Shown: one piece after another, positions 49,501 to 55,500 of the stretch
Position numbering within the stretch: position 1 is the first letter of the stretch
Layout of the letters: every line of letters begins with the position of its first letter
Origin: Escherichia coli
Lineage (GTDB): Bacteria; Pseudomonadota; Gammaproteobacteria; Enterobacterales; Enterobacteriaceae
Strand: one strand, 5' to 3'
DNA length: 64,000 nucleotides
Assembly: GCF_003018235.1 (NCBI RefSeq)
Contig: NZ_CP027437.1
Position numbers: made by a program

Positions 49501-52500
49501 AGTTTCAGCGCCTTATCCAGTGCCTCAGGAATCCCTACACTGGTGGCAAAATCATTGGCGGTTCCTAATGGCAAAATTCCCAGCGCGGGTATGTCATCCC
49601 CCTCACACTGAATCAACGCCGTAGAAACTTCATTAATGGTGCCATCGCCACCACCGGCAATCACCGTTGCGACGCCCAACTTCCGGGCCTCCTCTACATA
49701 TCGTGCGGCATCGCCTTTCTCCCAGGTGACCCGCACATGGATCGTCATTCCTTCCTCACGCAACAGCATAATTGCTTCGCGCAAGGGTAGATTGTCAGTA
49801 CTTTTGCCATTAAGAATCAGTAAGCTGGCGGGAAATTCTGCCATGATCGTATGTGCCTTTATGATTGGTCTGTAGATAGTGTAGAGCAGAAAAGAAAAGG
49901 TGGAGTCAGAACAGGATGAAAGTCGGAGGATAAAAAGTCAGTTCAAGTATGGGGGATTCAGTGGTTACCACCAGGAGCTTGCAATGGGGACAGCGAATAC
50001 TAACGGCAGCCACCGATAAATTTCAAAAAAGAGCATATGCCTAATATTCAACCAAACAGTGGCATCTTAAATATACTATTCCAAATATATTAAAGCCCCA
50101 TGGAGTTACTTGGAAAGGGCCTTCATGTCTGTAATTCCTACTTATGTAGGAAATGTTGTACAGAACATTTATTATAATCCTATTCAAATATAATAATCAG
50201 CCATTATTATATTTAAACACTAGAGAGTGTCGTTGGTATTTAATGGGGAAAGGTGAGATGAAAAAGATAGCTGCTATATCATTGATTAGTATTTTTATTA
50301 TGTCTGGTTGTGCTGTGCATAATGATGAGACAAGTATCGGTAAATTTGGCCTTGCATATAAAAGTAATATTCAGCGTAAACTCGATAACCAATACTACAC
50401 CGAAGCCGAAGCTTCTTTAGCCAGGGGCAGAATTTCTGGTGCAGAAAATATAGTAAAAAATGATGCAGCCCATTTCTGTGTTACTCAGGGCAAAAAAATG
50501 CAGATAGTTGACCTGAAGACAGAAGGTGCAGGATTACATGGCGTCGCTCGTCTGACATTCAAATGTGGAGAGTGAGAATATTTTTTGGTAAGCGTCAAAC
50601 ATGCGCGTTCTGGTTGTGCTTAGCCGGAACCTGTGCGAGCACGATGCCAATAAGTGAAAGGCATCGTGCTATGAAGGGAGATTCTATCGATGTGGTCAAT
50701 GGAAGACGGTGACCAGGGATAGGGCTTATGCATAAAAAATAAGCCCGTGTAAGGGAGATTACACAGGCTAAGGAGGTGGTTCCTGGTACAGCTAGCATTT
50801 TATGGGTTATGTTTTTCAGCGAAACGGATGATAACCTTAATAAATGCAGCTGTATGTGATCGGTTTCTAAGAATTTTCCATCCGGGAAAAATAATCGAAA
50901 TTAATCACTTACCGTGTGGGTTACGCGTGGTTTCCCCGGAGAAATTACGCATCAGCAGCGCGTAATTTAGCTCAAGATCCTGCGGCACCGGGAGCCACAC
51001 AGTATAACCATCGCCTGGTGCTACCGGCATAGCTTCGCCTTTGGCGTTTTCCATCTGCTCAAGGGTAAAGTTAATGTTGCCTTGCGGCGTCATCAGCTCA
51101 AGGCTGTCGCCAACGGAGAATTTATTTTTCACCGCTACCGCCGCGAGGTCCCCCTTGCGCTCACCGGTAAACTCACCAACAAACTGCTGGCGGTCAGAAA
51201 CCGAATAACCGTATTCGTAGTTCTGATAATCGTCGTGAGTATGACGACGCAGGAAACCTTCGGTATAGCCACGATGCGCCAGACCTTCCAGAGTTTCCAG
51301 CAGGCTGGTATCGAACGGTTTGCCCGCAGCGGCGTCATCAATAGCTTTGCGGTAAACCTGTGCGGTGCGTGCGCAATAGTAGAAAGATTTGGTACGGCCT
51401 TCGATTTTCAGCGAATGCACGCCCATTTTGGTCAGGCGTTCAACATGGGCGATGGCGCGCAGATCTTTCGAGTTCATGATGTAAGTGCCGTGCTCATCTT
51501 CAAACGCGGTCATATACTCGCCCGGACGCTGGGCTTCTTCGATCATAAACACTTTGTCGGTTGGCGCGCCGATACCCAGCGTCGGCTCAACATTTTGCAC
51601 CGGAATCGGCTCGTACTTGTGTACGATGTTGCCAACGTCATCTTCTTTCCCTTCCTGGACGTTGTACTCCCAGCGGCAGGCGTTGGTGCAGGTACCCTGG
51701 TTCGGATCGCGCTTGTTGATATAGCCAGAGAGCAGGCAGCGACCGGAGTAGGCCATGCACAGTGCGCCGTGAACGAAGATCTCGATCTCCATATCCGGCA
51801 CCTGATGGCGGATCTCTTCAATCTCTTCCAGCGACAGCTCGCGAGAGAGGATCACGCGGGTCAGTCCCATTTGCTGCCAGAATTTCACCGTCGCCCAGTT
51901 TACGGCGTTAGCCTGCACCGAGAGGTGGATCGGCATTTCAGGGAAGTGCTCACGCACCAGCATAATCAGCCCTGGATCGGACATAATCAGCGCATCCGGC
52001 CCCATTTCCACCACCGGTTTCAGGTCACGGATAAAGGTTTTCAGCTTAGCGTTGTGCGGTGCAATGTTGACCACGACATAAAACTTTTTCCCCAGCGCGT
52101 GGGCTTCATTGATACCGAGCTGAAGATTTTCGTGGTTGAATTCGTTGTTGCGCACACGCAGGGAGTAACGCGGCTGGCCCGCATAAACAGCATCTGCGCC
52201 ATAAGCGAAAGCGTAACGCATATTTTTCAGCGTTCCCGCCGGGGAAAGGAGTTCCGGTTTAAACATAATTCTCTCGTTCTGATGACAGGTCAGATCCGCT
52301 TCACCTGATGAAGCGGTTAGGGGAGTGCCCCCACTTTAAGGGCGGACATTGTAGCGCAATCGGCGGGTTTAGCTCCAGTGTAAATGTCTGGTGGCGTCCT
52401 GGTTTTGGTTAAGGATACGAATGACGATAATTTCCCCTGGTGATTGCAGGAAATAAATTACGTGGCGTTCAAAAGGAAGAACAAAAATACCTTCGCCTAA

Positions 52501-55500
52501 TTCAGGTCTGGGCGTACCTATATTATTGTTACTCAGAATCTGGAGAACGTCTGAAAGATGTTCCACATATCTGTCGGCTTGTGGTTCGCCGAAATGGTGA
52601 TAACTGTAATACCAGATGCCTTCTAAATCTTCATTGGCTTTTGGCATGAGTTTAATAATACGCACATTATTTCCTTATCCCTGCTTTCACCTTCCGTAAA
52701 AACGCGTCCTTTTCCCACGGCTGAGCTTCACCACTACTCAACCCTTCTGCAAGCATGTCACGTAATGCTTGCAGGCGAGACTCTGCTTGCTTTTCTCGAA
52801 GTAAGCGCAGTGACTCACGGATCACTTCGCTTTGGGTGCGATAGTCGCCGGATTCAATTAAGGACTCGATAAATTCACGCAACTCATCGCCGAGATCAAC
52901 CGTCATCGTTCTGGCCATGTTTATGCTCTCCTGTAAGTAAAAATCTTACATCAGTGTATGTCATAAACCGGATAGCGTCACGAAAGTATTAGAAGATATT
53001 TTGGTAGATGAACATGTTCAGGAGGATAAGCATGGAGATGTTAAACAAAGAAAGCACAATGAGTATTCATCAGTGTCCACTATTTTAATGGCGCAGGTAA
53101 ATAAATAAGCGTTATTTGGAAATAAAGCCGGACGCCAACAACCCACGCCCGGCATCGTAATTACGTATTGTCTTTTACCGTCTGACTTGTGCCATTGGCT
53201 TTAACGGAGGCAATTCCGGTTTCACGAGATTGCGCGGTGGCGTACATCTGGCTGGAGCCGATAATTTGATGATTGGCGGCTTTCAGATTGAAATAGAATT
53301 TGCCGTTACTTGCCGTTTTTTTCTCATAGCGTTCTTCTTGCGGGCTGTTGCTACGCACCGACGCGATGCCCTTTTCCGCAGAGGCTTTTGAGGTATACAG
53401 CTCGCTGGTGAGGATCGTCTCACCATTGCCCGCTTTTAGCACAAACCGGAACTGATTATCACTGCTCTTACTGAGTTCAAACCAACCAGCCATAATGACT
53501 CCTTGATTGAAATTGCGTATCGAAAACAGCATCTAAAGGTGCTGTTTACCGATTAAAGTATGAGCGATTTTCTGATGCCTGCCAGGGCGGAGAGATAATG
53601 TCAGTTTGCTGACCATGCGTGGGATAATGTTGCCGGATCTGGTCTGAACGCCATCTCCGGCTAACAAAGTAATGTCGCTAAAACTAAACGATGCGGCAGG
53701 CGTCGGCTTCCCAGCGGTAACCAACGCCGTAAACGGCGCGGATAAATGACTGTTCGGCGTCGAGAGATTCCAGCTTGCGGCGCAGGTTTTTAATGTGGCT
53801 GTCGATGGTGCGGTCGGTTACTACGCGGTAGTCGTCATAAAGATGATTGAGCAATTGCTCGCGGGAGAACACTTTTCCTGGTTCATGAGAGAGCGTTTTC
53901 AGCAGACGAAATTCCGCAGGCGTCAGGTCAAGCATTTTACCGCGCCATGAAGCCTGAAAACGACCTTCGTCGATAATCAACGGGCTTTCAGCATCCTGTT
54001 GCTGCAACTCGCGCTGCGGTTTGCAACGGCGCAAAATGGTTTTGACACGCGCTACCACTTCCCGTGGGCTGTACGGCTTGCAAATGTAGTCATCTGCGCC
54101 AATCTCCAGCCCTAGCAGGCGGTCGATCTCTTCGATTTTTGCTGTCACCATCACGATAGGAATGTCAGAAAAACGACGAATTTCCCGGCACAGCGTCAGG
54201 CCATCGGTGCCAGGGAGCATCAGATCCAACAGGATCAGATCCGGCGACGTCTGGCGCACGTACGACAGTACCTGATCGCCGTGGCTGATAAGCGTCGGCG
54301 CATAGCTCGCAGCACGCAGATAATCAATGAGCAACTGTCCCAGCTTCGGTTCATCTTCCACGATCAAAATACGCGGTGTGTTTTCGTCGATTGGTAACTC
54401 GGTCATACTTCTCTCTGTAAATCCCGTTCCAGCGGTAACTCTACTGTAATGCTTACCCCGCCAAAAGGCGAATGGGCAGCAATAATGCGGCCATTATGTG
54501 CTTCAACAATGTTCAGGCAAATCGCCAGCCCCAGCCCGGAACCGCCGCTGGCACGGTTGCGGGAACCTTCGGTGCGATAAAAACGTTCAAACAATTTTTG
54601 TAGCTGATCGTCACTGACACCTGGCGCACTGTCGGCAAAGGTCAGGCGCACCGTTTTGTCGTGTTGCTCGGCAGAGATTTTCAGGCTGCCGCCGCTGTCA
54701 GTGTAGCGCAGGCTGTTTTCAAGTAAGTTATTGAATAACTGCATTAAACGGTCGCGATCGCCAAATACGGTGATACTGTCTGGCAGGGAAAATTGCAGTT
54801 TCAGGCCACGGCTGGCAAATCGTTCGCGAAATGCGCCGCCCGCCACTTCCAGCAGTGGGATCAAATCTACCGGTGCTTTTTGATAGGCGAGAGCGCCTTC
54901 ATCAGACATCGACAACTGATGAAGATCGTCAACCAGTTTGGTCAGTGTACCGACCTCCGCCTGTAAAGACGCCACCGTCTCCGGCGTGAATTTACGCACG
55001 CCATCCTGAATGGCTTCCAGTTCACCGCGCAGCACCGCTAATGGCGTACGCAGTTCGTGAGAAATATCGGCCATAAAATCGCGCCGCATTTGCTGGTTTT
55101 TCTCCAGCGTGCTGGCAAGCTGGTTGAAGTCTTGCGCCAGTTTGCCCAGTTCATCTTCACTGGTGGGCGTTACGCGGGTAGTGAAATCGCCCGCCGCCAG
55201 TTTGTGCGTGCCGTCCACCAGCCGTTTGACCGGGGCCAAAAGACCGCGCGCCAGCAGAAAGGTGGCGAGCGCCGCGAGTAACGTTGCCAGAGCGACAATC
55301 AACCAGCTGGTTTGCCGCTGTTGTTTATCGAAATTGATATCAGTATTGCGCGTTAACCGCTCAACGGGGGAGGCGATCACCGCGCCAACTTCCGCACCGT
55401 TGACCAGAATGGGTCGCCGTGTACCGTCAGGTGGAATCGGCGCTCGCGGACCAACCAGCACTTTGTTGTTTTGATCAACCACCCAGAACTGGGTACGCCA

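Follow-up and report, generated by a model that had tools for sequence, protein, structure and literature searches.

A predicted ParD/ParE-type toxin–antitoxin cassette at the yegP–yegQ site of Escherichia coli

The window analyzed here comprises 64,000 nucleotides of Escherichia coli DNA (assembly GCF_003018235.1, contig NZ_CP027437.1). Between yegP and yegQ (trhP), the ORF listing contains two small open reading frames (ORFs):

52667–52918, minus strand: parD, 83 aa, ATG start
52369–52665, minus strand: parE, 98 aa, GTG start

A single base (52666) separates the TAA stop codon of parD from the GTG of parE. Both flanking genes, yegQ/trhP (50905–52266) and yegP (53161–53493), are co-oriented with the pair, and baeR, baeS and mdtD lie on the minus strand as well. 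For the neighbouring genes, the identities follow the RefSeq annotation of 266917_2, whose genome matches the window here at 99.6% identity. A preliminary description of this DNA had noted an 83-aa ribbon-helix-helix (RHH) antitoxin-like ORF, followed after 1 nt by a 98-aa ParE/RelE-like ORF and co-oriented with the flanking genes. Its interval (52369–52918) covers exactly these two ORFs, the strand it left out is minus throughout, and both family assignments were confirmed by profile matches above curated HMM cut-offs. Since these cut-offs are exceeded by wide margins, the ORFs are far beyond what chance would produce.

Compared with PF03693 (ParD_antitoxin), the ParD protein scored 69.2 bits at a cut-off of 21 (E = 4.3e-19), with residues 1–78 matching profile positions 1–76 of 81, and TIGR02606 was matched with 88.4 bits (cut-off 46.2). 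RHH_1 aligned to residues 6–42 with 18.6 bits, which is below its cut-off of 20.5. Solved antitoxins with matching sequences include PrpA (E = 1.9e-27), VcParD2 (3.2e-12) and CcParD1 (3.4e-11), and MtParD1 also aligns. Judged by these family matches, the 83-aa protein is a ParD-family RHH antitoxin (PF03693/TIGR02606). The dN/dS ratio of parD against Escherichia whittamii is 0.03, indicating strong purifying selection.

The ParE protein, identical to the annotated toxin CDS WP_001220181.1, matched PF05016 (ParE_toxin) with 51.3 bits at a cut-off of 23 (E = 1.8e-13), its residues 4–90 aligning to profile positions 1–88 of 89. All of its sequence matches in the PDB are ParE toxins, namely PrpT (E = 2.3e-12), MtParE1 (5.8e-8), CcParE1 (2.3e-7) and VcParE2 (6.8e-7). 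The AlphaFold model (pLDDT 93.5) shows a strand, two helices and three strands (E3-6, H8-25, H27-46, E60-65, E68-74, E78-86), without a RelE-type C-terminal helix. In a Foldseek comparison of this model with the PDB, ranks 1–23 were all ParE-type toxins with query-normalised TM scores of 0.73–0.88, except MtParE2 at rank 23 (0.56); the RNases RelE, YoeB and YafQ appeared from rank 24 on, mostly with 0.47–0.68. On the strength of sequence and modelled fold, the 98-aa protein is a member of the ParE branch of the RelE/ParE superfamily. This gene is likewise under strong purifying selection (dN/dS of 0.09 against E. whittamii). The window and the common E. coli allele differ in seven codons, and none of the seven differences alters an amino acid. 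A small, adjacent, co-oriented and tightly spaced pair with the antitoxin first and both genes intact corresponds to the layout of type II toxin–antitoxin (TA) operons.

Across 5,426 complete E. coli genomes, the yegP–yegQ site carries the parDE pair in 1843 (34%) and is empty in 3182 (59%), while in 298 (5.5%) a 5-kb island takes the place of the middle of the cassette. K-12 is among the empty genomes, and the O157:H7 genomes sampled also have an empty site. The yegP–trhP gap of K-12 MG1655 measures 146 bp and holds no module, in agreement with the preliminary description. Escherichia albertii and Enterobacter cloacae share a short K-12-like gap, so the empty site is ancestral and the module an insertion. 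The proposal of a strain-specific insertion thus stands as regards the insertion and fails as regards strain specificity, given the frequency of 34% and the presence of the pair at this site in E. whittamii. Two other Escherichia, sp. E1V33 and sp. E3659, retain decayed remnants of parDE, and in P. gergoviae the genes have become pseudogenes. The pair is therefore accessory and not a conserved core pair with another function; its patchy distribution, with toxin and antitoxin lost jointly on decay, is what is looked for in a TA system.

The comparison with K-12 also located the point of insertion relative to the trhP promoter, of which one element is retained in the window:

52348–52353, minus strand: TACAAT, -10 hexamer kept from the ancestral promoter of trhP (yegQ)

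In K-12, this promoter reads TTTACC-17-TACAAT, a 9-of-12 match for which 0.2 sites are expected by chance, and both hexamers are kept in E. albertii and Enterobacter. The -35 element TTTACC has been displaced by the cassette, and the 3' end of parE is found 17 nt upstream of TACAAT in the window. No terminator was found between parE and the trhP -10 element.

Among systems of known structure, PrpT/PrpA of the Pseudoalteromonas rubra plasmid pMBL6842 (PDB 7YCS/7YCU; ParE/PF03693 class) is the best match for both proteins and shares the antitoxin-first order. PrpA is 61% identical (47/77) to ParD, including an identical N-terminal strand RTMTVD, and PrpT is 33% identical to ParE (TM 0.88). PrpA represses its own promoter and also binds iterons to control the copy number of its plasmid, whereas parDE is chromosomal, between yegP and trhP. 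The PrpA motif (G/A)TTTG(T/A)AAT(A/G) has no match with up to one mismatch in 52919–53160; with this motif absent and the locus chromosomal, a plasmid copy-number module of the PrpT/PrpA type was ruled out. The same folds (TM 0.83–0.84) are found in Caulobacter ParDE1 (3KXE), Vibrio cholerae ParDE2 (7R5A) and Mycobacterium tuberculosis ParDE1 (8C24), whose antitoxins belong to the same ParD family (RHH, TIGR02606 “CC2985 antidote”). Their toxins CcParE1, VcParE2 and MtParE1 are 26–31% identical to ParE and carry a hairpin Trp where ParE has Phe.

Apart from the chromosomal locus, the nearest relatives are ParD/ParE pairs on plasmids of Salmonella, Klebsiella, Citrobacter and E. coli, for which no characterisation study was found in the literature searched. 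In the pair of pRM11065-1 (WP_097361899/WP_097361898), ParD is 88% and ParE 67% identical, and the genes overlap by 14 nt in contrast to the 1-nt gap here. The ParDE pair of Yersinia pYV/pCD1 is likewise an enterobacterial ParE with a PF03693-type ParD, for which experiments have demonstrated toxicity, SOS induction and filamentation as well as plasmid maintenance; it differs in being plasmid-borne, in its sequence (ParE 32%, ParD 36% identical) and in an 8-nt gene overlap. ParE-type toxins known in E. coli itself include those of PaaR2-PaaA2-ParE2 (O157:H7 prophages) and ParDE-I (IncI/IncF plasmids). ParE2 (5CW7) matches in fold (TM 0.77), yet is only 16–17% identical, and its system is prophage-borne with three genes and a non-RHH PaaA antitoxin; ParDE-I has a COG3905 protein as its antitoxin, with only 21% identity to Caulobacter ParD1. 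A three-component PaaR-PaaA-ParE system was rejected for the present locus, which has two genes only and an RHH ParD antitoxin. Phage records gave no match beyond one fragment of 43% coverage, and neither ParD nor ParE hit a family among the PADLOC-DB anti-phage defence models at E ≤ 0.01.

Upstream of parD, the following elements were delimited:

52926–52932, minus strand: Shine-Dalgarno sequence AGGAGAG of parD, 7 nt before the ATG, read from the sequence
52933–52949, no strand assigned: inverted repeat GTAAG-N7-CTTAC, part of inverted repeat I1, candidate ParD operator/promoter core
52919–53122, minus strand: non-coding 5' part of the cassette, with boundaries from alignments with empty alleles
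53009–53020, no strand assigned: perfect 12-bp palindrome TGAACATGTTCA, read from the sequence, the block around it being conserved in Escherichia alleles
53120–53139, minus strand: intrinsic terminator of yegP (stem and T-tract) at the 5' edge of the cassette, its stem common to empty alleles

The terminator-like site at 53139–53127 is followed by TTTATTTCCA. The non-coding 5' part must hold the parDE promoter. A strict sigma-70 scan of the minus strand recognised no site for it, and inspection by eye gave at most 8-of-12 matches (GTGACG-17-TACACT and TGAACA-16-TATCTT). The repeat GTAAG-N7-CTTAC is the sole upstream block that is invariant in the window, E. whittamii, the decayed P. gergoviae copy and the Salmonella plasmid homologue, and the plasmid pairs likewise have a GTAAGA..CTTA block before the ribosome-binding site. 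Its position beside the ribosome-binding site makes it the best candidate for the ParD operator, which is a guess because the recognition motif of PrpA is absent upstream. The block CTTATCCTCCTGAACATGTTCAT around the palindrome is the same in the window, the common allele and E. whittamii, and was not present in the distant homologues compared. At the Shine-Dalgarno sequence, E. whittamii has the related AAGAGAG with the same extra base as the window, and the common E. coli allele reads GGCGGGC there and lacks 1 nt.

Taken together, we consider it very likely that this common presence/absence polymorphism of E. coli is an intact type II TA cassette of about 754 bp, belonging to the ParE/PF03693-ParD class, that acts in the manner of its homologues. 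By analogy with characterised relatives (PrpT/PrpA, Caulobacter ParDE1, V. cholerae ParDE2, M. tuberculosis ParDE1, RK2 ParE), we infer a self-repressing ParD and a gyrase-poisoning ParE. ParD would dimerise via its N-terminal RHH domain and repress the parDE promoter, while its C-terminal half would wrap around ParE and neutralise it; parE would be translated from the GTG located 1 nt past the parD stop. Upon depletion of ParD, free ParE would bind DNA gyrase by its alpha-hairpin and trap or slow the enzyme; as a consequence, the cell would suffer DNA damage, induce the SOS response, form filaments and cease to grow. The targeting of gyrase, the alpha-hairpin and the role of Trp25 are known from published work on ParE toxins, including VcParE2, and the gyrase-poison mechanism rests on Caulobacter ParDE1, V. 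cholerae ParDE2 and M. tuberculosis ParDE1. In the PrpT/PrpA literature found, no gyrase assay is reported for PrpT, the closest solved relative. The role of the module in the chromosome is likely the self-maintenance of the cassette, with interference against related modules on plasmids as a possible further effect.

The module could instead be attenuated or domesticated, with a weakly toxic or non-toxic ParE and a ParD whose main task is to regulate transcription, for instance that of the downstream trhP; we regard this as quite improbable. Some chromosomal ParE toxins are weakly toxic. ParE carries Phe25 at the position of the key Trp25 of VcParE2, where Trp or Tyr is needed for full toxicity and Phe lowers it. 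Together, these points make the potency of ParE uncertain. Attenuation is further in line with the far better conservation of ParD than of ParE (towards the plasmid homologue and PrpA/PrpT alike), with the second regulatory task of PrpA in binding plasmid iterons, and with the position of the cassette directly beside the trhP -10 element. However, strong purifying selection acts on parE itself, and the joint loss of toxin and antitoxin in E1V33, E3659, the island alleles and the P. gergoviae pseudogenes is the pattern expected of an active toxin.

A further proposal, compatible with the main mechanism and about as improbable as attenuation, is anti-addiction, in which chromosomal ParD would neutralise the ParE of related plasmid modules and guard the host against being killed after plasmid loss. 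Homologous pairs are indeed frequent on enterobacterial plasmids (2654 records matched, 266 of them in the 60–80% identity band), and the identity of ParD to its Salmonella plasmid counterpart extends over the full length, including the C-terminal toxin-binding part. However, the toxins themselves share just 67% identity, and ParD–ParE pairs are often highly specific, as in the paralogous Caulobacter pairs.

A ParE acting as a RelE-like, ribosome-dependent mRNA endonuclease and not as a gyrase poison is hardly credible: PF05016 spans the wider RelE/ParE superfamily and the RefSeq product name is “RelE/ParE family toxin”, yet sequence and fold matches both favour ParE toxins over the RNases, the C-terminal helix that RelE needs is missing from the model, BLASTP gave no alignment to E. 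coli RelE, and the partner is a ParD-family antitoxin.

Equally remote is the idea that this strain carries the pair as a non-functional remnant in decay, to which the decayed copies elsewhere and the RefSeq (PGAP) label “frameshifted” for parD of 266917_2 might point. In the common E. coli allele, parD is modelled as 98 aa by means of a non-conserved 15-codon N-terminal extension, and this model is the probable reason why the gene in 266917_2 was flagged as a frameshifted pseudogene. The “frameshift” falls inside the extension, upstream of the 83-aa ORF; only in the common allele is the extension in frame, and the label is probably an artefact. E. whittamii has the arrangement of the window together with the 83-aa ORF, the match to the Pfam ParD profile starts with the first residue of the 83-aa protein, and in this allele two intact ORFs follow a strong ribosome-binding site.

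RefSeq already lists the intact type II cassette as a ParD antitoxin with a RelE/ParE toxin, giving the exact proteins correct family names, and each of them occurs on at least 1000 public contigs. No experimental study of the yegP–yegQ ParDE was found in the literature searched. The cassette is an ordinary one and its value as a discovery is small; nevertheless, few chromosomal ParE toxins are commoner in E. coli than this one, and quinolones too act on gyrase, its predicted target.

The yegP–trhP gap occurs in three states, namely empty, with parDE or with the 5-kb island, and the insertion disrupts a conserved promoter; the gap offers a simple natural system for questions of how TA cassettes insert, persist and affect their neighbours. 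The cassette separates the -35 and -10 elements of trhP, and parE and trhP have no terminator between them, which would allow read-through from parDE. We tentatively propose, as an unlikely possibility, that trhP (tRNA U34 hydroxylase) is transcribed largely in this way from the self-repressed parDE promoter in about one third of E. coli strains, with ParD, whose conservation is unusually high, as a local regulator. If so, a tRNA-modification enzyme would be tied to the state of a toxin–antitoxin module.

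Between yegP and yegQ (the latter now named trhP), the two open reading frames of the preliminary description were recovered at exactly the same coordinates, 52369-52918, co-oriented with the flanking genes and all on the minus strand. The two frames come from an ORF list covering 49-56 kb, and the neighbouring genes are named after the RefSeq annotation of a 99.6%-identical genome:

50905-52266, minus strand: yegQ (now trhP)
52369..52665, minus strand: parE, 98 aa, GTG start
52667..52918, minus strand: parD, 83 aa, ATG start, TAA stop
52933-52949: inverted repeat GTAAG-N7-CTTAC, candidate parD operator
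53161-53493, minus strand: yegP
beyond yegP, minus strand: baeR, baeS and mdtD

A single base (52666) separates the TAA of parD from the GTG of parE. The ParD/ParE-like identity proposed from sequence alone proved right when an HMM search was run. The 83-aa protein matched Pfam ParD_antitoxin (PF03693; 69.2 bits, cut-off 21), with its residue 1 at profile position 1, as well as the NCBIfam model "ParD family antitoxin" (TIGR02606; 88.4 bits, cut-off 46.2); for the 98-aa protein, ParE_toxin (PF05016; 51.3 bits, cut-off 23) was the sole profile match. Because PF05016 takes in RelE-type RNases too, the fold of the toxin was tested. An AlphaFold model drawing on 113 homologues, which an exhaustive representative search had supplied, reached a pLDDT of 93.5 and comprises a strand, two long helices and three strands, without the C-terminal helix of the RelE type. 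In a Foldseek comparison with the PDB, ranks 1-23 were ParE-type toxins throughout, at query-normalised TM-scores of 0.73-0.88 (0.56 for MtParE2 at rank 23), and the RNases RelE, YoeB and YafQ followed from rank 24 on, mostly at 0.47-0.68. A RelE-like RNase was rejected, since these RNase folds rank under every ParE structure and BLASTP of the toxin against E. coli RelE gave no alignment. The modelled fold and the RelE comparison together indicate that the 98-aa toxin belongs to the ParE branch. PADLOC returned a model for neither protein, and an anti-phage defence system was rejected on the lack of a match there.

Sequence matches of the toxin in the PDB were exclusively ParE toxins, namely 7YCS (2.3e-12), Mycobacterium tuberculosis ParE1, Caulobacter ParE1 and Vibrio cholerae ParE2; according to a published paper, the 7YCS toxin is PrpT of Pseudoalteromonas rubra. 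Those of the antitoxin were PrpA (1.9e-27; 47/77 = 61% identity), VcParD2, CcParD1 and MtParD1. PrpT/PrpA is the closest characterised system, and unnamed plasmid ParD/ParE pairs are the closest relatives overall. ParDE of Yersinia pYV is only 32% and 36% identical, and both PaaA2-ParE2 of E. coli O157 and the plasmid-borne ParDE-I are different systems. By homology with the ParDE systems of published papers, ParD dimers would repress the operon, and the C-terminal half of ParD would wrap and neutralise ParE; free ParE would engage gyrase via its alpha-hairpin, and DNA damage, SOS induction and filamentation would be the expected outcome. The potency of ParE is uncertain because the position aligned to the key Trp25 of VcParE2 is Phe25, both here and in PrpT; in VcParE2, a Phe in place of Trp25 makes toxicity weaker without abolishing it.

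RefSeq lists parD as a 98-aa protein in the common E. coli allele and as "frameshifted" in the 99.6%-identical strain 266917_2 (compared loci L001 3468-3765 and L002 1968-2264). In alignments, the common allele lacks 1 nt and differs by four substitutions immediately before the ATG; together these changes bring an upstream ATG in frame, adding 15 codons. The extra base is retained in the window and in Escherichia whittamii, so that each has solely the 83-aa frame; hence the 15 additional codons are not a conserved feature. Since the Pfam profile also begins at the methionine of the 83-aa form, we conclude from these alignments that the real ParD product is most probably 83 aa long; the 98-aa model and the "frameshifted" flag look like annotation artefacts. 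The ribosome-binding site of parD in the window, AGGAGAG, is strong.

The absence of the module from K-12, supposed in the preliminary description, was borne out, as the yegP-trhP gap of MG1655 is empty and 146 bp long, but the suggestion of a strain-specific insertion did not hold. Counting a match to at least 80% of a 1,051-bp query as filled, the cassette occupies the gap in 1,843 of 5,426 complete E. coli genomes (34%). The empty junction was found in 3,182/5,426, and 298/5,426 carry a 5.1-kb island encoding a PcfJ-domain protein, DUF1266 and DUF4034 proteins and one hypothetical protein. The exact toxin and antitoxin sequences are each found on no fewer than 1,000 public contigs, the former named "RelE/ParE family toxin" and the latter "ParD family antitoxin", and the toxin translation is identical to the CDS annotated WP_001220181.1. 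Being annotated and common, the module is therefore already known, and literature searches on ParE/yegP, yegQ toxin-antitoxin, the WP accessions and TAfinder surveys retrieved no study specific to the locus. Identity of at least 99% over the whole query is reached by no more than 100 records, so the exact allele of the window is the rarer one.

The gap of E. albertii and Enterobacter cloacae is short and K-12-like; the empty state is therefore ancestral and the cassette an insertion, which has since decayed or been replaced in some lineages. In island alleles the final 19 nt of parE and, at the opposite end of the cassette, about 28 nt are retained, so the island took the place of the central part of a cassette that was already there. 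One example is E. coli SF-166 (L004 6189-11333), in which the kept ends correspond to 52369-52387 and 53100-53126 of the window. A scan of other species, each sampled by one genome, yielded three loci, in Escherichia whittamii, Escherichia sp. E1V33 and Pluralibacter gergoviae. Escherichia whittamii has an intact pair at the same yegP-yegQ site. At this site, Escherichia sp. E1V33 (L007 1357-1700) and sp. E3659 (L014 2834-3176) share one remnant, in which about 70 nt from the 5' end of the cassette run straight into ~130 nt from the 3' end of parE; the deletion common to both took out parD together with the promoter and half of parE. Pluralibacter gergoviae (L006 3745-4295) has a 69%-identical copy between alr and tyrB, in which the start codon reads ATA and parE has a premature stop. 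This shows that the pair inserted independently elsewhere on a chromosome and then decayed.

Regarding the source of the cassette, a recent plasmid origin was rejected because the toxins of the best true plasmid homologues are only ~66-67% identical (antitoxin 88%). Two "plasmid" matches at 99% come from records 1.4 and 4.8 Mb in size, which were taken for chromosomal sequence deposited among the plasmids. A phage origin was rejected as well, the sole match in phage records being one partial Salmonella phage fragment. Among plasmid hits H39, H41, H45 and H49-H51, several homologues are located around coordinate 2.4 kb of the respective record. On several E. coli plasmids the match is split into three pieces without an annotated gene and may be frameshifted.

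Alignments place the cassette at ~52369-53122. Its 5' edge coincides with the T-tract in the yegP terminator (stem at 53127-53139), and its 3' edge is essentially the parE stop codon. A strict sigma-70 scan found no parDE promoter on the minus strand upstream of parD in either allele; candidates picked by eye reached 8-of-12 matches at best. The inverted repeat GTAAG-N7-CTTAC is the sole upstream block invariant in E. coli, E. whittamii, P. gergoviae and a Salmonella plasmid homologue, and may represent the operator. A PrpA-type operator was rejected, as the published PrpA motif (up to one mismatch) is absent upstream of parD; across the window it gave 31 matches against 37.5 expected by chance. 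Within 53009-53025, a perfect 12-bp palindrome, TGAACATGTTCA (53009-53020), adjoins the AGGAGG and ATG of a divergent 18-codon ORF (MEMLNKESTMSIHQCPLF), and three Escherichia alleles share the palindrome block without change. The ORF itself (53032-53088, plus strand), behind a perfect AGGAGG, is unconserved in frame in the common allele and E. whittamii, so it was not counted as a gene. A 45-aa ORF (53018-53155, minus strand) was discarded because its start lies inside the yegP terminator. An Rfam scan of 52000-53400 returned a lone sub-threshold "6A" match (21 bits, gathering threshold 41.2, E 0.57), which was treated as chance.

At the other edge, the empty K-12 allele (L008 5559-5587) has a sigma-70-like trhP promoter, TTTACC-17-TACAAT, with 0.2 such sites expected by chance; hexamers and spacing are kept in E. 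albertii and Enterobacter (compared loci L012 and L015). Insertion of parDE displaces the -35 hexamer wherever the cassette is present: in the window (52348-52372, minus strand) TACAAT is retained at 52348-52353 and the -35 position is now the 3' end of parE. No terminator-like site was found on the minus strand between parE and trhP, and with the -35 hexamer displaced, read-through from parDE into trhP may be possible. Folding of the parE-trhP spacer was no more stable than that of shuffled sequence (z -0.45). There are hints in the sequence that the trhP leader may be structured. A hairpin in the trhP 5' UTR, CCGCTTCA-N5-TGAAGCGG (~52283-52303, minus strand), is conserved and matched no Rfam family; the Enterobacter cloacae version has what looks like a compensatory change from T:A to G:C.

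Relative to the common E. coli allele, all 7/7 differing codons of the window are synonymous, and comparison with E. whittamii gives dN/dS values of 0.03 (parD) and 0.09 (parE). Identity to E. whittamii is 96% for parD and 95% for parE, and 85-93% for the flanking genes. Besides the displacement of the trhP promoter, what remains of experimental interest is that ParD is conserved much better than ParE. This pattern is the opposite of that usually reported for ParE systems. Within the subgroup, the antitoxin is 88% and the toxin 67% identical to a plasmid homologue (L009 2748-3014), and the same holds against PrpA/PrpT (PDB 7YCS), with 61% versus 33%.
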